Origin: Fistulifera solaris
Taxonomy: Eukaryota
Direction: 5' to 3'
Assembly (NCBI GenBank): GCA_030295235.1
Contig: AP026162.1
Coordinates: 1,488,001-1,552,000 of the forward strand
DNA: 64,000 nt
A program made the translations under genes and the position numbers. This document shows, piece after piece, positions 8,953 through 46,245 of this stretch. Numbering within the stretch: the first letter of the stretch is position 1; every line of letters starts with the position of its first letter. Below the pieces are notes generated by a model. It made no database searches, was not told where the DNA came from, and saw only the letters and a list, made by a program, of their open reading frames with translations.

Positions 8953-9358
8953 CCTGAGGCAATACCACTGTTTGCACCGATGTTTACTAAATACTAGGTT
9001 TTGGTCATTGTGCGTACTCTTATTGGTAGCATCTTTGAAGAGAAAAAAGAATGAGGATCTTTATGCGAGCCTCAGTACCGATACCAGAACTTTCCCTACG
9101 AGCGCTACATCAAATTCTACGTAGACATTCGAAGCGTTGCATTTTTCGATCTTTGTACGTTTTGAAGTCAATTTGATGTCGGTTACCATTTACTGGCTCT
9201 TAATCTTCATGACGAGAAAGCGATGGCATCGGTGCAAAATAGACCTGAAAATGGTGACCTCCGGTATCCTTTCTGTCGATTGATTGGTTTCCTTACGAGA
9301 GGTACGTGAAATTTACGTCGACATTCGAAGCGTTCCGCTGCTTTATAAGGACGATTTA

Positions 9359-10330
9359 AAGGACGACATCCGTGCGCATGGGCTTTTGTTTCTAGATTAT
9401 GATAAAATATTCATGACTGAAACGCAGTCGTGGTTTCCTGAAACCAACATTTTGGCCTATAGTAAATATGCGAGAAGCGATCCGCAAACATCTTTAACGA
9501 ATGACTACGAACTCTGCAATGCAAATGCTTTTTTACATTCATGAATTTCCGAGTGAGGACTAGACTACAAAGCTAATATAAAGGACGACATCCGTGCGCA
9601 TGGGCTTTTGTTTCTAGATTATGATAAAATGTTCATGACTGAAACACAGTCGTGGTTTCCTGAAACCAACATTTTGGCCTATAGTAAATATGCGAGAAGC
9701 GATCCGCAAACATCTTTAACGAATGACTACGAACTCTGCAATGCAAATGCTTTTTTACATTCATGAATTTCCGTGTGAGGACTAGACTACAAAGCTAATA
9801 CAGTGTAAAGGACGACATCCGTGCGCATGGACTTTTGTTTCTAGATTATGATAAAATGTTCAAGACAGAAACGCAGTCGTGGTTTCCTGAAACCAACATT
9901 TTGGCCTATAGTAAATATGCGAGAAGCGATCCGCAAACATATTTAACGAATGACTACTAACTCTGCAATGCAAATGCTTTTTTACATTCATGAGCTTCCG
10001 AGTGAGGACTAGACTACAAAGCTAATACAGTATAAAGGACGACATCCGTGCGCATGAACTTTTGTTTCTAGATTATGATAAAATGTTCATGACTGAAACG
10101 CAGTCGTGGTTTCCTCAAACCAACATTTTGGCCTATAGTAAATATGCGAGAAGCGATCCGTAAACATCTATAACGAATGATTACGAACTCTGCAATGCAA
10201 ATGCTGCTTCACATTAAATTGATACTCTAGTTGAGGCCTGCGAAGCTAACAAAAGGACGAAATCCGTGCGCATGGGCTTTTGTCATTAGATTATGATGAA
10301 ATGTTCATGACTGAAACGCAGTCGTGGTTG
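9359..10330. repeat. Tandem satellite, ~218-227-bp unit, four full copies plus one partial
   Basis: AAGGACGACATCCGTGCGCAT starts at ~9359, 9581, 9808, 10035 and (variant) 10253; units near-identical. Confidence 0.97.
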
Positions 10331-10508
10331 CTTAATATCTACTATAGGCGAAAGTGTTGTCATGATGAAACCATGAACATAGGAGTTCTACTTACTCCTA
10401 TGCCATGAAAACGCGACGTTGCAAAAAAATATAAACTCGTGGCAACACCTTACAACTTACAAAACAGAATAGTACCATGGCATACCTGCTATTAATACTA
10501 TTGATTGA

Positions 10509-15697: not shown

Positions 15698-16354
15698 ATA
15701 AAACTGTAATTGGCAATCTTCTGAACTCTATAGTCAATCTCAATTTAGTTCAAAGTTGTTCTGTCGAAACGCACGGACCCTTGTCAAGATTTTATTCGGG
15801 CGGCCACTGTGGCCGGCAAAGCGTCCCGCAAGCTCATCATACGCAGTCACGAGAACGATGCGCTGGATTTGGCGAAAGACTATCACGCCATTTACTCGAC
15901 ACCAAGTACCTTGCAAGACGAGACGCAATAGACCTTGCAAGCGACCGTCCTGGAGTCCGTACAACAAGGTGTAACAAGATATGCCAGACATTATTCGTGC
16001 GGTTCAGTCCGAGACGTTCCATGACACCGAGCAGGGAGCAAATTTCTGAACGACAACCAAATCACCTAGTAAGTTAAGGCCTAGCTGGTTACATACTTTA
16101 AAAAAATCGCTCCAAATCATCTTCGTCAACATTCTCTCTGTGGATTCGCTTGCTATTTTTGCTACTTAGACACAATCTTTGTGAATCAATATTCACGCAT
16201 AAGCTGTGCAAAACCAAACTCGTTAAGTACAACGATCATACACTATTTCAGTGTACTAATAAATGCGTGCCGGTATCGATGCCTCAAAAAGAAGCGACCT
16301 TACTATAAGCTCGATTGCTTTCGCGGATTGCGGCCTTTTCCTTGGATCAAGCTA

Positions 16355-16935
16355 TCGATTTCGTCGTTTGAAAAATGAGCAAGAGAAGGCGATTGTCGCG
16401 TCAAGAGGCGTAGTCAAAACAGACGCGAAAACGGACATGCGATCTCTATTTTCAAAGTTGTTCTCACTAATGCTTGTTCGTCTTTGGTCATAGAACATCA
16501 AACATTTTATCTTTCGATGCTTGTTCGTTTTTGGTCATCGAACATCAAACGTTTTATGTTTTTATTTCGTCGTTTGAAAAATGAACAGGAGAAGGCGATT
16601 GTCGCGTCAAGGTCAAAATATAGACGTGAAAGCGGACATGTGCTCTCTAAATTAAAAGTTGTTCTCACTAATGCTTGTTCGTCAATGGTCTTCGAACATC
16701 AAACATTTTATCTTTCGATGCGTGTTCCTCTTTGGTCTTCGAACATCAAACATTTTTCTTCATCTTCGAACATCAAACGTTTTATGTTTTTATTTCGTCG
16801 TTTGAAAAATGAACAGGAAAAGGCGATTGTCGCGTCAAGGTCAAAATAGACGCGAAAGCGGACACGTGCTCTCTATTTTCGAAATTGTTCTCAACAATGC
16901 TTGTTCGTCAATGGTCTTCGAACATCAAACATTTT
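16355..16935. repeat. Three ~205-230-bp tandem units with nested ~40-bp hairpin subrepeats; a diverged copy lies near 19180-19247
   Basis: TTTCGTCGTTTGAAAAATGA.CA.GA.AAGGCGATTGTCGCGTCAAG at ~16359, 16565 and 16794; subrepeat ATGCTTGTTCGT...TCGAACATCAAAC. Confidence 0.92.
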
Positions 16936-17165
16936 TTCTTTTCTTCGAGCGATCGTCGATCTTCAAACATATTTTCATTGTCAGCGCTCAAAATCGTTCT
17001 TTCATCTTGTGTACAGGAATGGAACTGGGGCGACAGTGCGTGTCCTCGTCATTAGCAAATCGGTCAGCGTCTGGATAGTTTCAAGCGTTACATTTGCACG
17101 AGGCATTTACAAATACCTTCTCTTTTGATCCTTTGCATCATCGAATTGCCCAAGACAAGCGTCTC

Positions 17166-17376
17166 TTCCAGTCGCCTCATGTCGGATACCTCTCGCTGTC
17201 AGAAGAACAAGCTCATCCAAGGTGACATCCTTTGGTGATTCGGGCATGATCATCCTTTGGAGACAATAACAGAGTCTCACGGACCATCTCGGCGCCATGC
17301 AAAGCCGTTCCTGAAAACGCACTTTCAGCAGCCTGCAATGCTTCATCGAATGTCACGCCGCCTTCTTCGTCGTCGT
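17166..17376 (-). pseudogene. Duplicated internal fragment of the COG1-like gene (matches 21668-21889)
   Basis: Encodes DDDEEGGVTFDEALQAAESAFSGTALHGAEMVRETLLLSPKDD / MPESPKDVTLDELVLLTARGIRHEATG, with an 11-bp deletion relative to the intact gene. Confidence 0.95.
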
Positions 17377-17659
17377 TATCAAAGCAGCTTGCGACCAAAC
17401 AATCGTACAATTAATGCGTTTTGGCGAAAAACGGAAAACGCAAGAAGCGTAAAGATACGCTTAGTCCGTCCGGTTTTGAACATTATCATGACCAATTGAA
17501 TGGGATGTCTGCCCGGTACATTATTGGGCTAAAAGTGCGAGAAAAAATCAGCATCGCGCAAAAGAAAAAGCGAGAAGCGATCAGAATATTTGCATTGCGT
17601 TCCAAGAGCTCATTATTTCTTATTATTTGCGCATCATCAACTGCAGAACTTATTCGATC

Positions 17660-18706
17660 ATGACAAAATTTACTCCTCGGAAAGACAAGAAACTCAGCCA
17701 AGCGTTTGCTAGCGTTTGGAATGATAATGAGTCTAAGGGTGTTCAACAGACAAACGAAGAATTCTATGGGCGGGTGCACGAAAAGTTTCACGAGCTACTT
17801 CCTAATGCTGGGAAACAATTCGATCGAACCAGCCTTATGAACCGCTTCACCAAATACTTGAACAAAGCGACGCCTGCTTTCACAAAAGCACTCGAACAGA
17901 CAAAGCGTAAAGATGGTGAAAGTAAAAGGACTACTTGGAACGAATTTTGACTCAATACCGAATCAATGAGAACATCGGCAAGAAGACAAAGCTGGACTGG
18001 GTCTTGCCGTGCTGGAAAAGTTCTCCGTAAGCTGTCTAAATATGAAAGTTTGGAAGATGCAGCTCATGGTGATGGTTCGTCGGACAGTACTCGTAGTGCA
18101 AAGCGGGCTGCTGAACAGGGGTCCAATGAGCGCCTCGTCCGCCGTAAGACGAAAGGGGTGATGGTCGCAGATAAGAATAAGAAGATCGAAAAGCTCATGA
18201 CCCAGATAAAGCAGTGGTCCGAGGAAGCTGTTGATGGCATCAATTACGGGTTGCGTCGCATTGCTGCCATAACGAATGCACATGAAAAAGCCTAAGACCT
18301 GTTGCTTGCAGCGAGCGCTTACGACGATGAAGATACGATCCAGCGCGACGAGGATTATAGCGAGTTTGCCATCGACAGTGAAAATGAGAAGGAGGAGGAC
18401 GCTGGTGAAGATGAGGAAACTGATGAAGATGAATTTTCGACCCAGCGCGACGTGGACGCCTTTAGCGAGTATGGCAGCGACAACGAAGATGACAAAGAAA
18501 ATGATAAGAAATCTTCGGTAAGCAGCCATCGGCGTCATCAAAGCCCGTCGCCTCTATTGACCCGTCGCAGCTTAAACGAAAGCGATCATCGTAGCAAGAG
18601 CGAAGACAAGTCTACGAAAGCCCGTCGTGTCTCTTTGGAAAGTGATCGTCGTCGAACAAGCTCGGAGTCTTTGATGGTTGCTCAGTCCCGCAAGAAAAGC
18701 GAGTGA
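17660..18706 (+). pseudogene. Myb/SANT-like (NAM-associated, PIF/Harbinger ORF1-type) protein, disrupted
   Basis: KFTPRKDKKLSQAFASVWND...GVQQTNEEFYGRVHEKF...RTSLMNRF; after frame repair, CWKVLRKLSKY; acidic tail; indels near 17925 and 18018; in-frame TAA at 18293. Confidence 0.6.
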
Positions 18707-19895
18707 GTATAGCTCGGATAGTTCGGATGAGGAATGAGGAAGCTTCTACCTAGATAAGAATGTTCCCTAAGGATGCCCCCGTCTTCACTTGTGCTCCTGC
18801 TTTTTTCTCAATAACGACGGAAGAAAAGCGCTCGAGGTTGAGTGTCATGATGAGAATGACTGTAGACTCCATAGAGCCTTAAATTAGTAGTTGTTTGCTT
18901 ACTATCATTTGGTTTCTACAGCCAGATATGCCATGAAACTCTCCAGTAGCGATGGTAAATAGAATTGCACTTGGTTTTCGTTCAAGTGCATGAAGCAAAC
19001 CGCCCGCGAAGCTCGTCATGAGACGCAAATTGTCAAATACACCTAATATAATTCACTTCTCCCGTGTATCTGTAGATGCGTAACGGAATCAATGGCTGTC
19101 TCTAAAGAAGCGACTTTGCGATTAACTCCATCGATGATTCCATGGATTTGACCACGCTCTTGGATCTTTCAATTTGGCCTTTCGAAAAATGAGCAGGAGC
19201 AATAATCAACGCGTCGTCATCAAAATAGACGTTAGAGCGGGCATGCCACGTTGAATTCACCACCGACTGCCTTTAAAAGAAGATTTCCGGTAATCGTGTT
19301 GTAATTACTATGCATGTGTGTTGAAGATGTTGGGTTGCAGAATCTGGACGGCGACCTGCAGCAATGCGACGATCTAAGGCTTGTCATATTTGATGAATTA
19401 GTTCGGTTTGGTGATAAGATAGGAGAGCCCGACATGTCATTTTCTTATGCTTTGAGTTACAGTTCTAAATCTTCTGCCATTCAAGAAGTTTTTGCATCAA
19501 GCATCACTATACATCATTCATAAGAAAAATGAACCAGACGTTATTTGCATCGTCCCGTGTTTTGTGTTTTCGTCCTTTTTGTGGTTCACGTTTCACGGAT
19601 CATAAGTATCAATATTTTGTTGTTCACTATATAGTGGGTATTAACCGCTACAAATACTATTCAGTATGTTGTGGCTATACAATGAATGTAAATTTGTACC
19701 GGTGTGATTTAGCTGGGATGCGGTGCAGTTTCGTTCGGAAGTTTTGAGCATTTTTTGACACTTGATGACAACATGTTGTAACTTTCGGCTCGACGACCTT
19801 GTAACCACGTAACTATGCAATAGAATCATGACTTTCTATATTACGTTGAGCCTTAAGTCAAAAGGACCCCCTTCCGCGTGGATTAACGGAGCTGC

Positions 19896-20490
19896 ATGAA
19901 GGTTTTCACTGAATTATCGAAGATGTTTGCGGCGTTTTCTTCGGTTATAGGGAAAAATCCTCTCCTCGTCAATAGTTTTACAGGTGGTTCCCTTTGTCTC
20001 GCATCGGATGCTATTGCCCAACGAATGGAGCAGCGTGAATTTGTTGACTCGAGTTTTTCTACGTCCAGGATGCTTTCGGCTGGTTTAATTGGTTCGTTTT
20101 TTGGCGGTGTTGTGTATCCGCGAGCATACGCTCGTCTCGATACGATCTGGCACGGAAAAGATCTCGCTTCTCTCTTCAAGAAGTCTCTGGTGGAAATTTT
20201 AACTGTAGGAGTGTTCGTCAACAGCGTCAGCATATCGAGTCGGGGTGTCTTTTGCGGGCCGGAAGCCAAACTCGGTTGTGCGTCACGTGGCCAGAGAAAT
20301 GCCTCATGTGATGCTCAACGATGCTAGAGTATGGCTGCCTTACAACATGATCGCGTTTTCTTTCATCCCTGCGTATATCCGACCGACTGCTACTGCTTTC
20401 ATGGAAGCCAGTTGGCAGACCTACATTAGTTTACGGTCTCATGATTATGAAACTCATGTTGATTCGGAAAAGGCCGCACTCGTTCTTTGA
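19896..20490 (+). CDS. Mpv17/PMP22 family membrane protein; indel near 20250
   Basis: NPLLVNSFTGGSLCLASDAIAQ, RML..G, VWLPYNMIAFSFIP..IRP, WQTYIS. Confidence 0.85.
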
Positions 20491-20642: not shown

Positions 20643-23600
20643 CTACCTGTTCTTGAGCATCGATGAGAGAAAGCCAAAACCGCTACTGACTACGTTTGTT
20701 TTGTTCGCATCTTGTGCCTTTTCGGCTTGTTCTCGGTCTTTTGCGTATTTGCCGCGAAGCTGTATTTCGTTGAGTGTTCGATCCGCAGGAACCGGAAGAA
20801 GCGCGTATCGACATGAAGACTCGAGCGGCATGTAGATGAGTGGGTCGGACCGCGTTGACGAGGTTGTGACGATCTCTCCCATGGAAGACACTCTAGCATC
20901 CGTTTGACCGAACAAAGATGCAAAGAAGATGTCGCTTGAATCGAGCACGCGACTGTGCTCCGCTTCGATCTTCGTAGTCAATGCGCGGACAAAGTCTGGT
21001 CGGCAGACCTTTCCGATCACCACGTCGATGGCTTGGCGGAAATGTTCAAGTTGTTTATGTGCTGGTAAGTCTTTTCGTGCAGCAGTGGATGCCGGAGCTG
21101 GGGTGATATCCGTCTGATGATTGTAACAAAGACAAACGAAGCCGACATCAACACGGAGCTGCACGATAGAGGATGAGCAAAAGTCGTCCAAAGTTTTACC
21201 CTCTTTCTTGTTGTACTCAAAACCCATGCGCATACTGTGAATAAAAACATTCATGGATTCATTCAGTATTGCCGACCTTAACGTTTGTAAAAGCATTGGA
21301 ATCGAGCTGGCGCTTGTCGTCGGCAATCCGAGCTTTGTAGCGTACTCAACGGTGGGTGCTGGTTCAAAAGAATCAGCGGGACATGTGTTGCAGTTCAACA
21401 AAGATGAAGCTGCCATGAATAATCCGACGAGATGGGGCGATACGCTATGGGGAAAAATGTTCGCACTTTCTTGTGTTTCTCCATCGGCGGATCCGTAAAT
21501 CCTTTTCCACTCCTCTTCCTTCATACCGGGCCCCGTACGAAAGACTTCATCTGTTTTCTGTCGGAAGTAGCTAGTTTCGGATTGCAGTGATGCACTAGCC
21601 CAATTCGCAAAACATACATTGATGATCTTGTCCAAAGATCTTTGAAATGCGCCCAGTGCGCTCTCGGTTCCAGTCGCCTCATGCCGGATACCTCTCGCTG
21701 TTAGCAGAACCAGCTCATCCAAGGTGACATCCTTTGGTGATTCGGGCATGTCGACTACCTGATCATCCTTAGGAGACAATAACAGAGTCTCACGGACCAT
21801 TTCCGCGCCATGGAAAGCCGTTCCTGAGAACGCACTTTCAACTGCCTGCAATGCTTCGTCGAATGTTACGACGCCGTCTTCGTCGTCGTCACTAACGTCA
21901 AAGGCAGTTTGCATATCCACGTAAGATATCATACCAATCGTACTCTGCATTGCGGCAGGAGATGAATTCGGGTCCAATAGCTTAGGGAGCGCTGACAATC
22001 GATACTTGAGCAAATAGCAAAGTCTTCCGACAATAAACTCTTTCGTGCAGCTACTCGCGTCGTCACTTGTACTCTGAACCAAGCGACGAAGCTCCGAGAC
22101 CAACCGTCCCAAGATTTCGCACGTTTGCACGTACAAAGACTCTCGAAGACGACGTTCGCTTTCGACTCTTTCCTCGGCGTGCACCAAAAGCTCATGAGCA
22201 TCATCGCTCACTTTCATCAAAGACTGATTTAGATCCGTTGTAAGCTGTAAAGTGTTCCGGTAAGCTTCATGAGGTAAAATAGACGAAGCGGGAGGAGCAC
22301 TCGCCAAGGATTTGGTGAGCGTTGCCACAACTAGAGAGTGGACGGATTGGAAGGATGTGGTCAACAACGAATGAACAAGCGACGAAAAGGTGTGGGAAAA
22401 CAGTGCATTCCAGAGTGAAAATCGCTGGTTGCTGATGTCAGCGGCGTTGCCAAAAACAGTGTGAACATCAACCATGTTTTCCACTGCCTCTTCCCAAGTG
22501 CAGACCCCATCTGAGGCTAGGCGTTCCATCGAATGAAGTCCATCTGTCTTATCGTAAAGGCTCTGACGGATGTGTCCCAAGGCACTAGCCGAAGTACCCG
22601 CAATCGAAACTAACACAGTCTTGACTTTCTTGCGGATTAGTGGAAGATGAGTCGCCATAAATGCCGAGCACTTGGACTTTACCGCAGCCTTATCGAAAAC
22701 CGGCAATGAATGGGCGACTCGTTCGACGACGCTTTGGTCAACCGAGTGAAACTTCTTCAAAATGAACATCTGATAAGGGTGCAGCAAAGCATCGTATTGC
22801 AAAACAAGTACAATTTTCGCCAGAATGTGTTCTGGCTCGGCTTCAGCTTCTTCGCTTTTCTCCTTTTGGGGTGTTTGCAGCTTATTCAACAGTGAGACTA
22901 GTAGTTTCGCCTTGGAATCAAAATAGATATCGAGAAGACGAGACGACCGATCTTGACCCTTTCCATATCCAGCAAATCGAGAGAAACGAGCGATGCGGCA
23001 GATTCGTAGACACCGTAGGCTGGGTCGCCACCGCGCTTGCCGAACGACGCGGCGCTCAGAAGGTTCTTGGTCGCCGTGCGTTTGATCTTTTGTGGCAGCG
23101 ATTGCACTTGAAGAAACACCATCTGTGCTTGGTCGATGAGCGAAGAGTCCATATTGTTGAACACCTGGCGCTTTTTAGGATCAGCGAGAGAGTTGGCCAG
23201 AGGATATGACTCCGAGCACGACGCAATCAAGCTAAACAAATCAATCAATGTGGTTGTGGCCTTAAGAGCATCGTTCTTATCCAAAGCGCGGTGAACCATC
23301 CGTGAAAGTTTCGATAAGTTACGCTTCGCATCGAAAAGGATCATTTCGTCGTCCTGAGTTTGGTCTTTTTGTTCCTCGACAGTTTCGTTAGCGCTGGCAT
23401 TTGCAATCGTCACAAGTTTATCAAAGAGGGACGGCAAGCCATGCACCAAGTCGTAAAGTTCTTGAGCGCGTTCATTCATAATAATAACTTCATCGCTACT
23501 TCCCACGAGCTCTCGGTACCGCGAAGCGAGAACCAAACGCAGTTCCGTCCGTTTGGCTTCGGCTTCACGAAGGGCGCGGTCATGAAGCATTCGCATCTCA

Positions 23601-23812
23601 TCGATCGTCATGGTTTTCGCAATGGCTTGAGAGTACTGCGGATTTTGCGTTGCGAGGGCAGGAGGAGGAGGTAGCGATTGTCCGGGCCGGCTGATGCCGC
23701 GAAGGCCGCCCGAAGGGGAACCTCGAATTGACAGAGCAGAGGTACGCGTAGATCGCGGCGACGAGGAAGACCCTGCGGAGTCGACACTAGTCGTCCTGTT
23801 GGTGTTTATCAT
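20643..23812 (-). CDS. COG1: COG1/Vps51-like vesicle tethering subunit; indel near 22960
   Basis: N-terminal EAEAKRTELRLVLASRYRELVGSSDEVIIM resembles the Vps51/COG1 motif. Adding one base gives ...GQDRSSRLLDIYFDSKAKLLVSLLNK and joins the ORFs. Confidence 0.7.
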
Positions 23813-24344: not shown

Positions 24345-25719
24345 TTAAATTCTTCGCAAATCATCAAAAGAAATACCTCCGGGCTCGTTGAAGCTTGTAT
24401 TGCTGGACTGCGTTCGGTGAATAAGTGTATCAAAATCAATGTGCGGTTCGTAGTGATCTACCGCAACGGCGACACGATTCGTATCCTGAATATTCAGTTT
24501 GGGGGTGAACGAATGAATCTTGCTCATGACATCGTGAGTGGACATGTCTACCGTCATGACCGGAGCACCGTCGAGACCGGTAAGCATGTTGCTGACTTCT
24601 TTCGAGAGTTGATACTTTCCTCGACGACCGCACACAATGAGCGCCGCTTCAAACGGGTCACTCTCTTTTCCCAGACGGCGCTGAAATTCTCCGAGGAACC
24701 CGACGATAAGATCGTCTCGAGTAACGTGGCAAATGTACAAAGTCCGACTCGGTTTCTCATGCAAATTCTCAAGAAATCGGTTGAGATTGGTGGTAACAAG
24801 GTTGATATCAGCAGGACTATAATGCCAAAGTCGGTGCTTCTTGCCGCTAATCAATTGGGTTTTGAAAAGAGTCTCCAGGTCGGCCAGAGCGGGGCATCCC
24901 AAGAAAGGTCGATCGGGAATGCAGCCAATCAGCGGTACACCCCACGCATTCATCATGGCTTTCGCCATGTATTTCTTGGTCTGTTCTAACTTCTCCGGGA
25001 TGACTTTATTGATAATAACTCCCGCAATACGGACATTATAGTGCTGGCAAAGGATTCGATTCAGCTCAAGTTCATCAAAGGCACTCCCCAGTCCACCATT
25101 GGCCACTAACACCATATCAGCCCCAATGAGTGAAGCCACTTTGGCGTTATTGATTCCCACAATACTCCCAACCGCGCAGTGACCGGTCCCCTCACATAGG
25201 ACAACATCACTCGCCTTACTGACGTTCGTCATGGCTTTTTGAATATCATGAATTTGTGAAGCGAAGGAAATTTCGCCGTCCACGTACTTTTTGGTGTAAC
25301 CCGACGGAATGATGACGGGGCTCATGTCTTCGTAGTCAATGTGATTGAGATGAAAGTGTTCGCGTACCAAGCACACATCCTTGTCGACGCGAATCTCGGC
25401 ATTGCGATTGTCCGAGTGAACGGGGACGTGTTGCTGACCGACAGGTTTGATAAAGCCCACTTTATCGAAACGTTTTTGCAGTCCTGACATGATCGCTAAA
25501 CTCGTGGTCGTCTTTCCCACATGCTGTCGTGTCGCCGCCACAAAAATGGGGCGTTGCAGCTTTCCTCCTCCCACGCTTTTCCAAAAGCGAGAGCCGTCCG
25601 GAAACTTATTCCATACGGGGGGACTTTTTTTCCTTGAGGTTCGAGGAAGTCGGAGAATAGGCGCGGGCTCCGGACGTTTGTAGTGCCGAGCGGCTCAATG
25701 AGCCCTTTCCTTTCATCAT
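24345..25719 (-). CDS. BioD-like P-loop (AAA_26) plus DRTGG protein, i.e. the phosphotransacetylase N-terminal region without the catalytic domain; probable transit peptide; indel near 25620
   Basis: IFVAATRQHVGKTT, VGFIKPVGQ, VLCEGTGH, NNAKVASLIGADMVLVANGGLGSAFD, GVIINKV, TRDDLI. Start position approximate. Confidence 0.8.
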
Positions 25720-26765: not shown

Positions 26766-28901
26766 TTACAATGAGGACTCTGGAGCATAAACGTGCATGA
26801 CGCGGTCTTCGCCGACGAACTCGATTAGCTCGTCATATGATTTCTCAAACTTACAGACCAATTCATCGTCACTGTGTCTTCCATCCATTAAAGTCGCCAC
26901 TTGCTGCTTCAATTTCCAATCTTCATCCTGCAATGAATCTGTTTTCATCGAAGGCCGATATGAGAGGTCGCGTGTCGGTGAGGTTGGGATAGTTGCACCG
27001 TGTAGTAAGCTCCTGCCGAAACTCTCGTTGACATCGTGCGTTCCGCCGTCCACCAGAATAGGATAGTCATGCACTCTGTACAAAAGTCCATGAACAACAC
27101 CAAAAGAAACAAACCGACGGTGATCGATAAGATGAAAGATCTTTTTCCAGTTGACAACACCCGTTGGCATTCCGGGTGGTAAGTTCCCTGCTACTAGGGA
27201 GGCCAACAGGTCCCCCAGATCGCACCCCCTGTGACAAGCAGCGTAGAGTTCTGCAATGGCACCTTTCACTTCATGATGCTCTAGTCGACGTTGACTGGAC
27301 ATCGAGTACCCCTGTTCGCTGTACGAGCCCTGGGATACGGAACTGTTGATACGAAAATTCCCGCTGTGCGCAAAGAAACTTCGAGCGTTTGCAGCTTCGT
27401 TTCGTGCCATGGGCGTGTCGAGAGAACGGCTAACACTAATAGGTGAACCGCTTATCGGGCTGTTCTCGCTCTGAGGCGGCGGGGGAGGGCGTCGAATGAT
27501 AAAGTCCACTGCGTTCTGTAAAAGCTTGTTTTCGTGACCCAGCAGCAACGAGCCGGCCTTTTCAGTTGACTCATAGCGATTTGAATAAAAGAACATGTCG
27601 ATGAGGGCAATCACTCTATGGTGAAGTAAAACTCTAAGACAAGCCTGAACCATTTCCATGTCTACTTCAGCTTTCTGTGAAATTTGGCGGGCGCATGTTA
27701 CTCCGTCAATATGCATTGACACCCAATTTATAGAAAGATCCCATTCGTACTATCAAACAGTAGAAGTGTGAGAAAACTCGTAGGTCATTTACATCCAATG
27801 AAGATCACTTACATTTTGAAGTTGCCAGTCTCTTCTCAAAAAGATGGGTACTGCATGATCAGGGACGGGTCGAGGTGGACGCCTTGGTGGATGAAATAGT
27901 TTCAGATTCAGCAAATTTGCCGAGTTGACGTATAAATTGCACTCCCATGTTTGTGAGTTAAGTGAAATGAGAGTCCACTCTAGTAGACCTTGCAAAACCG
28001 AATGATTCTCTTTCACGGCTGACAAAAATTGCGATTCTACCTCCATGTCGCGAATGGTATCTGCCAGCTTACAAAGAACCGGCTTGAAAGGGCGGGGATC
28101 CTCCGTCCGACGGAGAACAAATCCGACGCAAAAAGAATGTGAATTGCGTTCATACCGCTGGTTCGCGATAATGGTCGGCCGCGTGAGTATGTGAATACTG
28201 TGGGTAGAAAGATTGACGATTTTCCCGGTTAATTCACTTCCTGTGATCACGTATTCACTGCAGGATTCAAAAATGGAGGAATTCCCTTCTCGGGTGGCAA
28301 ATGGTTCAAAGGCGTCTTCCTCGCGTGTCAGGGAGGCCAGAGAATGAAAGAAGTCGCTCGAATAGGAGTTCCCTGATTCCATGCGTCGATGAGGTGTATT
28401 GCTGGCAGTAGTAGCTGGTAACACCGTCGATAAGGCTAAATTCGATGATGGGGTGAGCGATGGCGGCGCTTTTTGAAACCGTTCAAAAAAGTCTTCCAAT
28501 ATCTCATGCACAGTTTCCACAGGAAGTTGAATGTCGCGACTCATAAAGTTGCGAGGCGCCTGGTACGATACTTTTGGGCCAACTTTAATATCGAACTCGG
28601 CGTAAAAACAACAAAAGAGTGGACATCGTGAAGGATGCTTCGGAGTTGGAACAGTTCTCTTTTGCAAATGAGGGAAATGGTTCTCTGGAACAGGTAAGGT
28701 TCTAGTAGTTTCTGTCGAGTCATTCTTCGTCGAGGGCCGTTTTGTGAACGGCGTTGCAACCTTTCTCCCTCCCTGCCGAGGTGTCGAAGCTTCGGATCGA
28801 ATACTCAAGAGCGAAGGGCTCGCCGCATCCTTTGTTTTTGGCTCTGCTTCTTGACTACTGTCCGGTGAGCATGACAAAGGTGTTGTTGTATCCTCGTTCA
28901 T
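26766..28901 (-). CDS. NPRL2: Nitrogen permease regulator 2-like (GATOR1 subunit); intron 27750-27812
   Basis: FYAEFDIKVGPKVSYQAP, YERNSHSFCVGFV, MEVESQFLS, LNLKLF, WDLSINWVSMHIDG, IDMFFYSNRY, IDHRRFVSFGVVHGLLYRVHDYP, MDGRHSDDEL. Confidence 0.92.
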
Positions 28902-29049
28902 TGTTGCGGGTTGTTATGAATCGTAATGATCTTCAGATCCGCATAGCAGCAAACTTCCACATTTTTTAGGCAATGCGTGCTCGTGTGTCGTTTTCACTTG
29001 CACAGAAAATGTGGTATTGTTGCCAGAAATTCTTGTAGAGTGGTGTCTT

Positions 29050-30010
29050 CGCGTCCCCAGAAAATCTGGGATATGCCATTTTCATACCGCCAGAAAATCT
29101 GTGTGATCACTGTCTTTTCACGTTTCCACTTGGTCCAGACAATCTGCACCAGTTGTATTTTTTAAAACTTTAACAGAAAATCTGGGGTGTTGTCTTTAAA
29201 CGTGGTCCAGAAAATCTGGACCAGTTGTATTATCACGTTCCCAGGAAATCTGGGGGTGATTTTTACACGTTGTCCAGAAAATCTGGACCAGTTGTATTAT
29301 TTTTAAAACGTTAAAAGGAAATCTGGTGAGTGGTGCTTACACGTGGTCCAGAAAATCTGGACCAGGTGTATTTTCACGTTCACGTTCCCAGGAAATCTGG
29401 ATGAGTGGTGTTTACACGTGGCCCAGAAAATCTGGACCAGTTGTATTTTATTAAAAAAACTTTAATTAACAGGAAAATCTGGGAGTTTGGTGTTTACACG
29501 TGGTCCAGAAAATCTGGACCGGTTGTATTTTCACGTTCACGTTCCCAGGAAATCTGGGTGAGTGGTCTTTACACGTGGTCCAGAAAATCTGGACCAGTTG
29601 TATTATCACGTTCCCAGGAAATCTGGGGGTGATTTTTACACGTGGTCCAGAAAATCTGGACCAGTTGTATTTTCATGTTTCGCGTTCCCAGGAAATCTGG
29701 GGGGATGTCGATTACACGTGGTCCAGAGAATCTGGACCAGTTGTATTTTCACGTTTCCAGAAAATCAGGGTGAGACCCCAGTTGTATTTCACGTTCACGT
29801 TTCCAGAAAATCAGGGTGAGTGGTCTTTAGACGTGGTCCAGAAAATCTGGACCAGTTGACCAGTTGTATTTCACGTTCACGTTCCCAGGAAATCTGGGGG
29901 AGTGGTGTTGACACGTGGTCCAGAAAATCTGGACCAGTTGTATTATTTAAAACGTTAACAGGAAATCTGGGAGTTTGGTGTTTACACGTGGTCCCGAAAA
30001 TCTGGGTTGC
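29050..30010. repeat. Minisatellite array of ~12 palindromic ACACGTGGTCCAGAAAATCTGGACCAGTTGTATT units, period mostly ~65-85 bp
   Basis: Core at ~29131, 29202, 29268, 29342, 29417, 29499, 29574, 29641, 29717, 29833, 29914 and 29987. Spacers contain a related CCAGGAAATCTGG. Confidence 0.97.
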
Positions 30011-30264
30011 GAGGTGTGTGTGTCAGACTGGCTCCAACGGGCGATGCCAAACCAGAGATATCAACCCTGACACGGGACGTCTGCAATCTGACAACATAGA
30101 TCCATCTAGTCTCTTTACTACTAAATTGATTATACTACATTACTACGGAATCCGAACGCCCATCTCCCAGCAGAAAGCAGATTCTCAACCCAGTAGAAGC
30201 GTTGTGTAAACGGCGGAAATTAAAGCAGAACACCACATTTGCCACGTGTGATGGTGGTGGCGAG

Positions 30265-30578
30265 TAGACATGTGACTTTTCAAAATTTTCGTGAAAGTCA
30301 AGTGAAAGTAAAGTCACTGGCCTTCAAGTGAAGTTTGCAGTTTAAAGTGTACTAAGCGGTAATGATTGACTATAGTGTTTTGTGTACAAAAGAGTGTCGC
30401 ACAGAGCTTGTGAAAGTTAGCCCTTTCCCTCTCATCCCTAATCTACGCAGTCCTACGTACATTTACGTAGGTTTGGTACTTCAAGTGAACTCACCGAAGT
30501 CTCAAGTAAAGTGAAAGTAAAGTAAACTTCAGGTGCTCAAGTGAAGTTGCAAGTTACAGTGAAAAAGCCACATGTCTA
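30265..30578. mobile_element. Non-autonomous hAT-type element (MITE), 314 bp
   Basis: Left TIR TAGACATGTGACTTTT, right TIR AAAAGCCACATGTCTA (15/16 match); identical 8-bp flanks GTGGCGAG at 30257-30264 and 30579-30586; internal AAGTGAA(A)GT repeats. Confidence 0.9.
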
Positions 30579-30881
30579 GTGGCGAGGTGTAAAAAGCCGA
30601 CTCACTTTTTTCAGTCCCGGTGATTGTCGCCCAAAGTGCCTCCGAGCTGCTCCAAGTGAAAATTCCACATTCCCCTCGGCAACTTTCCCGCCACAATGGC
30701 AGAGTGAGTATAGCGGAATGTGCCCCAATCTTTCACCGTTCATTACAGTTTACAGTACGGTACCGGGCACGGCTCTCATCTCTTTCGCAAAATGTTTACC
30801 CGCACCTCGAAATTTGTTTTGCACCTTTCATCAGCAATCATTCTGTCGATCATCATATGCTAAACAAAGACTGAGAATACT

Positions 30882-45984: not shown

Positions 45985-46245
45985 ATTTCCAGAAATGCTG
46001 GAATTTTTTAGCAACCCGAAAAACACTCAACACCTTGTCCTGAATTTCTGGTAAGGTTTACTCCGTATTTGTTTCCTTGAAACGGCTCGTTTTTGAACTT
46101 CTATACCAGGTAGGTTTAACTTTCATAGATTTTTTGAAGGCGAAAATCATTTGGTCCAGAATATCTGGACCCACCACAGATTTTCTGTAAGTTTCAAAAA
46201 TCCATGTCCAGAATTTCTGGAACGTAGTCAGAATTTCTGCTTGAT
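45985..46245. repeat. Cluster of degenerate CCAGAA(A/T)(A/T)TCTGG palindromes upstream of the lumen-protein gene
   Basis: TTCCAGAAATGCTGGAA, GGTCCAGAATATCTGGACC, CAGATTTTCTG, TCCAGAATTTCTGGAA, CAGAATTTCTG. Confidence 0.7.

Follow-up and report, generated by a model that had tools for sequence, protein, structure and literature searches.

The COG1-like piece at 17166-17376 of the analysed DNA (the window, a stretch of 64,000 nucleotides from Fistulifera solaris) is, judged by its alignments, a real, dead and old partial duplicate. As a correction to an initial annotation, the copy is not a recent capture, since decayed flanks and a decayed ortholog on the L subgenome mark it as old. The left part of the piece, 17166-17290, was most likely refreshed by gene conversion after the split of the H and L lineages that make up this genome. 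In the proposed course of events at least 300 bp of COG1 exon 2 were duplicated, in the same orientation, into a spacer 4.5 kb away before the H/L split, and the copy is dead and decaying, two steps that we regard as established. Non-allelic gene conversion then very probably replaced nested tracts of the H-side copy with sequence of a working COG1, a first time at about the H/L split (17291-17376) and again in the recent past (17166-17290). The recent template may have been the COG1 of T, a third lineage of Fistulifera, or of a lineage related to T, reached via an earlier hybrid or introgression, a step on which our belief is evenly divided; the full scenario of old duplicate, conversion and third-lineage template is one that we would hold equally apt to be right or wrong. 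Mechanism and sequence feature are both ordinary; what draws attention is that the tract may preserve a trace of a different hybrid in the past.

A self-BLAST of the window aligned the core of the piece with its same-strand counterpart at 88.3% identity over 222 columns, including 11 gap bases (E 2e-78), which confirmed the copy relation and the 11-bp deletion as first annotated. In the frame of the gene the two differ by 15 substitutions over 211 sites, exactly 11 synonymous and 4 non-synonymous (D298E, V300G, V310A and F319L; residues counted from the ATG of ORF 22769-20643), the very numbers that had been estimated by hand. Against a neutral synonymous share of 0.29, derived from kappa 2.9 (the transition bias at fourfold sites), 11 synonymous changes among 15 give P = 5e-4, so the raw synonymous excess is not chance. 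The core has no in-frame start codon, and its 11-bp deletion, located after 17246, causes a frameshift with a stop soon after. Among 120 homologs the new residues were found at E298 in 1, G300 in 0, A310 in 4 and L319 in 1; conserved residues are affected, and the replacements look like decay rather than a selected protein. The EF-hand-like segment that had been placed inside the fragment is there in the sense that 11 of the 12 loop residues of what we take to be the canonical EF-hand loop pattern lie in the core, yet its Pfam score stays below the cut-off (EF-hand_8, E 0.013).

The first exon of the source gene matches PF08700 (Vps51/Exo84/COG1 N-terminal, E 1.3e-5), its protein is FisN_1Hh632 of Fistulifera solaris, gene-model differences aside, and the UniRef name of the matching database protein is COG subunit 1; by these matches the gene is COG1-like and represents the H copy in the allodiploid Fistulifera solaris. 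An assembly artefact was considered and rejected: short-read contigs of run X1, which may be the source strain, cross both junctions and the deletion with zero differences from the assembly, and in run X2, a wetland metagenome of another study, the fragment occurs with both junctions and with zero differences in the covered parts, none of the X2 contigs spanning the deletion point.

Table 1. Coordinates of the dead COG1 copy, its source gene and the neighbouring elements of the spacer (window positions).
Feature	Position	Strand	Basis or remarks
Dead proteasome subunit RPN5/PSMD12 fragment, three internal deletions, two stops	15785..15983	+	live copies on C5 and C6
Repeats: a tandem triplet (units of about 206-228 bp) plus a 260-bp unit	16182..16980		260-bp unit has a 62% direct copy at 18991-19246
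Decayed left flank, homologous to COG1 21572-21667, orthologous to C2:1416299-1416395	17076..17165	-	alignment against nulls
Core of dead COG1 copy, gene residues 295-367	17166..17376	-	self-BLAST and codon alignment
Tract most likely refreshed	17166..17290	-	0 private substitutions in 125 sites; 0 of 5 H-private bases; 1 difference from T in 99 readable sites
Older tract with EF-hand-like loop	17291..17376	-	86 sites with 8 private substitutions, of which 4 synonymous and 4 non-synonymous
Probable right flank, decayed through many small deletions; COG1 counterpart 21890-21956	17377..17425	-	scoring-dependent
Myb/SANT-like reading frame, interrupted, possible transposon relic	17660..18295	+	280 bp beyond fragment; single copy
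Matching segment of live H-subgenome COG1 gene	21668..21889	-	self-BLAST and codon alignment
Live COG1-like gene, 2 ORFs (23812-22898, 22769-20643) read as two exons	20643..23812	-	PF08700 and protein match

Fistulifera solaris is described as an allodiploid with the subgenomes h and l (PMC5935921). The fragment found three matches in the genome, i.e., itself, the resident gene on contig C1 (H) and C2:1419055-1419276, and no paralog closer to it than the resident gene was among them, in a search that can miss diverged copies. The C2 copy is the L homoeolog, because C2 is collinear with the window and its COG1 protein is 98% identical to FisN_1Lh632; over 13 ORFs the H and L versions differ by dS 0.27 and dN 0.029.

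The first clue to the age of the duplicate comes from its flanks. A low-stringency match to COG1 runs from 17076 to about 17392, so the 210-bp copy of the initial annotation is a real core within a longer homology, from about 17076 to 17393 and perhaps to 17425. The left flank aligns to the gene with 62 identities, 22 mismatches and 18 gap bases, a score that was reached by none of 400 random sites and none of 400 shuffles; for the right flank 0 of 200 nulls reached the score under one scoring and 22 of 400 under another. On C2 the syntenic left flank shows 72 identities and 15 mismatches to that of H (15 in 87), and both are far from the COG1 gene. Directly after it, C2:1416396-1416455 aligns to COG1 starting at the first base of the fragment. 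The remnant was tested on the 66 bases before a dispersed repeat that starts near C2:1416462; against the L gene its score was reached by not one of 1000 random sites and not one of 1000 shuffles, and against the H gene by 1 of 1000 and 0 of 1000, respectively. Of the 36 sites mapped in the remnant, 6 differ from the fragment, and at 17197 the remnant has the base of L; what looked like an L base at aa 347 was discarded, as it belongs to the dispersed repeat. Divergence in the flanks and in the L-side ortholog amounts to 17-26%, and indels are numerous. The duplication predates the H/L split, because the decayed ortholog sits at the same site of the L chromosome. The repeat that truncates the L-side remnant (C2:1416450-1416660) belongs to a dispersed minisatellite-like family with at least 179 genome matches.

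The direction of change was read with the help of the third lineage, T, represented by the proteins P0001 and P0122, which in a protein search were about 90% identical to both H and L COG1. The tree places T just outside H and L with weak support (82/83), and two neighbouring genes display the same three-way split of H, L and T (proteins considered: P0001, P0122, P0123, P0125, P0128 and P0136). The stretch 16950-17700 was compared with four of the eight listed runs (X1, X2, X6 and X7), of which X6 and X7 gave no contig matching this region. Beside the fragment, X2 contains the H gene and a second COG1 with the P0001/P0122 residues at aa 333, 338 and 339. The T bases were read from contig ends and difference tables rather than from a T sequence and cover 178 of 211 sites, the unread ones being 17196-17221 (26 bases) and 17370-17376; as a consistency check, the count of one contig (9 differences) agrees with the table. 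Over the 178 sites the fragment differs from T at 10, from H at 12 and from L at 13, and H differs from L at 7.

The H copy in X2 has a depth of 8.9-9.9 and the T copy of 9.0-9.1, with no L-type contig. Equal depth of H and T COG1 without L suggests a second natural Fistulifera hybrid that shares the H parent, though such depths might also result if two species occurred together or if contigs had been filtered. T-type DNA did not turn up in two metagenome scans, and the literature searched, largely open-access and without supplements, yielded no mention of this locus, nor of a third subgenome in Fistulifera. A fourth lineage, nearer to H, is indicated by P0129, a homolog of the gene near window 26766-28901, which differs from H at 6 of 251 residues, from L at 18 and from T at 19. 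This lineage was rejected as a template: it should carry most of the H-derived bases, and the fragment is without them.

When the differences are assigned to lineages, most of the synonymous excess moves away from the dead copy. Pairwise, fragment and H differ at 15 sites, fragment and L at 16, and H and L at 13; 6 differences are private to H, all synonymous, 7 to L (6 synonymous), and 9 set the fragment against both. All three of the testable H-private sites are H-derived by T, so that fragment and L have no derived base in common there, and at the other three the decayed L-side remnant has the base of the fragment; the live H gene thus accounts for six of the 11 synonymous differences, three of them polarised by T and three by the remnant. 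A seventh lies at aa 323 (17288), where fragment and T agree against H and L. The L-private sites, four of four testable, were confirmed by T as L-derived, and the fragment has none of these bases. What falls on the fragment's own branch is 4 synonymous changes (one at a three-state site) and 4 non-synonymous ones, a mix compatible with neutral decay (P = 0.18 against the expected share of 0.29); on the other side, 6 of these 8 private changes are at third positions (P = 0.02), with few changes in all. A side remark of the initial annotation, that an old copy and synonymous change in the live gene could contribute, thus accounts for most of the signal, T and the remnant together assigning 6 of the 11 synonymous changes to the resident gene and leaving 4 on the branch of the fragment. 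Its main proposal, a second functional version of the gene as donor, survives in part: within this genome no copy is nearer to the fragment than the resident gene, which speaks against a homoeolog or closer paralog (L at 16 differences, H at 15; three genome matches), yet another functional source is possible for 17166-17290, and a third-lineage template still fits this 125-bp tract better.

The case for conversion rests on how the private changes are distributed. The left tract was refreshed after the H/L split, because all 8 private changes fall in 17291-17376 and none in 17166-17290. The contrast of 0 in 125 with 8 in 86 gives Fisher P = 6e-4 with the break chosen post hoc, and the probability of any empty run as long as the left tract is 0.006. 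Had the left tract drifted ever since the split, it should carry 8-17 changes, and it has 0. In a codon model with a neutral dead branch, the right tract was dated to about the H/L split, with its source indistinguishable. The flanks retain old states without crossover, the left one being common to L and remote from the gene. Non-allelic gene conversion from a working gene is a standard process by which a duplicate is refreshed. Under this reading the synonymous excess would follow from two things: each refresh would have reset the copy to functional sequence, and the live H gene would have kept changing at synonymous sites. A single capture before the H/L split with drift since then was rejected, as at t1 = 0.135 it scores 7 log units worse than the T template and cannot account for a left tract devoid of changes; the same model is not worse than the T template when all rates are halved.

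The template of the recent conversion is the more delicate question. The left tract has none of the 5 H-private and none of the 5 L-private bases and shares 17288 with T against H and L, and for this tract a recent T template beats H or L by 4.5-7 log units. Site 17288 is the sole positive join of fragment and T, the remaining signal being the absence of H and L changes. The main competitor keeps the same old duplicate and the conversion but lets the resident H-lineage gene, 4.5 kb away, serve as the template every time; we would grant it a substantial minority of our belief. In that scenario conversion of the left tract came early in the H lineage, after which by chance five synonymous changes accumulated there in the H gene and none in the dead copy. 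It offers the shortest path, with a template in cis, which is a priori likelier than one in trans, and it does without an extra hybrid; moreover, four of the five H changes lie within 10 codons and could be one cluster. Against it stands that about 30 synonymous sites would have had to take five changes with all 125 free sites left unaltered, and the exon's synonymous differences are without overdispersion at the 70-codon scale (8-19 per block). The break had been chosen after seeing the data, and resident-only conversion was therefore simulated with the break free; with T unknown in its unread stretch, the observed advantage was reached in 0-3 of 250 simulations and, with or without rate noise, in 1-8 of 400.

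The template result is nevertheless fragile, and 26 unread T bases could remove its support. If the L base of the remnant at 17197 is ancestral, fragment and H share one derived base, which would favour the resident gene. The depths of two X2 contigs, 7.1 and 12.5 (about 16 and 25 expected if T ran along), hint at differences between T and the fragment within the unread stretch. Should the base of T at 17197 be that of L, the observed value is attained by 0-36 of 400 resident-only simulations, and by 21-36 of 400 when dead DNA is given a slower clock and the T base is unfavourable; with the L base at both 17197 and 17218 the advantage falls to 0.2-1.2 log units, and if T equals the fragment throughout the unread stretch it amounts to 6.7-9.4 log units. 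The models fix branch lengths and omega, and the outcome depends on the neutral rate: in aligned non-ORF DNA the divergence is about half as large as dS (0.13 vs. 0.27), a point in favour of the resident gene, and the dead flank has 15 mismatches in 87.

A capture from the homoeologous L copy of this hybrid, the main reading of the initial annotation, appears very improbable. The genome is reported to be allodiploid (PMC5935921), and at 6 sites fragment and L agree against H, but all six are H-derived (three by T, three by the remnant), and L is no nearer than H, with 16 vs. 15 differences. At 7 sites, moreover, the L base is missing from the fragment, and for 4 of these T shows it to be L-derived; the fragment also occurs in identical form in run X2, where no L-type contig appeared; with the remnant included, the gain of an L donor over the resident model is only -0.8 to 0.6 log units. 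We give equally little credence to the view that the left 125 bp were held by purifying selection on DNA or RNA, as a regulatory element or a source of small RNA, with no conversion. Zero private substitutions in the tract and the identity of the assembly and X2 in the covered parts would agree with it, but the L ortholog of the same bases has decayed, and the tract holds the 11-bp deletion. An RNA that pairs with the COG1 message should track the H gene, which the tract does not do, and X2 is likewise without differences in 17377-17700, with only 2 in the left flank, so the tract is not singled out.

The spacer that holds the fragment is about 4 kb long in H and 1 kb in L, and fragments of unlinked host genes, RPN5 (from C5/C6) and COG1, lie together in it. 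Compared with both live copies, the RPN5/PSMD12 fragment has 12 synonymous and 13 non-synonymous differences (synonymous share, P = 0.03) and is about equally far from each; it fits an old capture, and it had no match on C2. The repeats at 16182-16980 and 18991-19246 bracket the COG1 fragment and the Myb/SANT-like frame, and they were not found elsewhere in the genome. The Myb/SANT assignment came as a lead from the Atlas (scores 0.88-0.91), with no Pfam match, and no homolog of the frame was found. A PIF/Harbinger element would combine a Myb/SANT protein gene with one for a DDE transposase; of the genome's 24 matches to the transposase domain PF13359, none falls within the window. Over window 17660-18703 this frame is followed by an acidic tract, with apparent, mutually compensating frameshifts in A runs near 17932 and 18014, for which decay or assembly error is possible. 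As a whole, the spacer resembles a relic of a Pack-type transposon, of which terminal repeats, target duplication, second copy and transposase were not found. In the search for terminal inverted repeats the best arms, among 167 pairs, were 14-25 nt and imperfect, with no target duplication seen by eye, and no related termini were found elsewhere in the genome by a search that can miss diverged copies.

One Pack-type capture that included the RPN5 fragment, with error-prone synthesis making the clustered changes and with no later conversion, would account for two gene fragments of different loci, repeated units and a Myb/SANT-like frame in one spacer, in a genome with 24 matches to the Harbinger-type transposase domain PF13359, but it is hardly credible as the whole explanation: a single event cannot yield both a decayed L ortholog and an unchanged H tract, terminal repeats or target duplication are not convincing, the right part of the block and 16000-16460 match this locus alone, and no similarity was found to the 6 of the 24 transposase loci that were tested. 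A transposon may have made the first duplication, which leaves the substitution pattern unexplained; a transposon and a repair event are both possible origins of this first step.

Several other features of the window were recorded along the way. Blocks at 9035-10463 and 28937-30659 are absent from C2 and consist of tandem arrays (units of about 222-230 bp, and shorter irregular units); they match window 46127-46234 and other loci weakly. A gene-like stretch at 19887-20490, presumably Mpv17-like, is conserved with C2; its frame ends at 20324 and seems to be continued in another, where a one-base assembly error is possible. At 24345-25490 lies a highly conserved protein with AAA_26 and weak DRTGG matches (dN/dS 0.01 between the subgenomes), the layout of which is, as we assume, similar to the N-terminal part of phosphate acetyltransferase.

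Duplicated (non-processed) pseudogene fragments can stay similar to their parent through non-allelic gene conversion, as reportedly described in work on delta-globin and on plant pseudogenes. The COG1 piece is like them in being a nearby partial duplicate in the same orientation, with an identity step, decayed flanks and a decayed ortholog in the sister lineage; unlike in those cases, its last template does not resemble the neighbouring parent gene and may be from another lineage of the species complex. With the transfer between diverged functional copies in F. solaris it has the organism and the subgenomes in common, whereas here the partner subgenome did not supply the template, and what received it is an ectopic, dead copy instead of the homoeologous gene. 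Pack-MULEs are DNA transposons that carry gene fragments, and the spacer is like them in its fragments of two unlinked host genes side by side, its repeats and its possible transposon frame; it departs from them in that no terminal inverted repeats, target duplication or second copy were found, and in that the COG1 piece lies 4.5 kb from its source. Among diatoms, Nitzschia palea is presented as a reticulate species complex with several close lineages and signs of gene flow (PMC9804273). Several close lineages and signs of gene flow are common to both, but in Fistulifera the trace consists of one 125-bp tract and of H and T copies at equal depth in one metagenome, and is not genome-wide.

For the reading of dead copies in general, these results call for caution, as a pairwise synonymous excess between a dead copy and a gene is no proof of a selected donor until the changes have been assigned to lineages. 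According to a statement in PMC5935921, the progenitors of the F. solaris subgenomes were unavailable to its authors. If the T template holds, one subgenome would have passed through another hybrid, which bears on the origin of the two subgenomes in this oil-producing diatom. One may go further and suppose that the H set was partnered with T first, that the 125-bp COG1 patch went from T into the dead duplicate by ectopic conversion, that H was later paired with L, and that allodiploids of H and T are still found in the wild, a history that we offer tentatively and consider rather doubtful. If it were true, former hybrid partners could be read from dead duplicates, and the genus would consist of subgenomes that exchange partners in a network rather than stem from a single hybrid origin.
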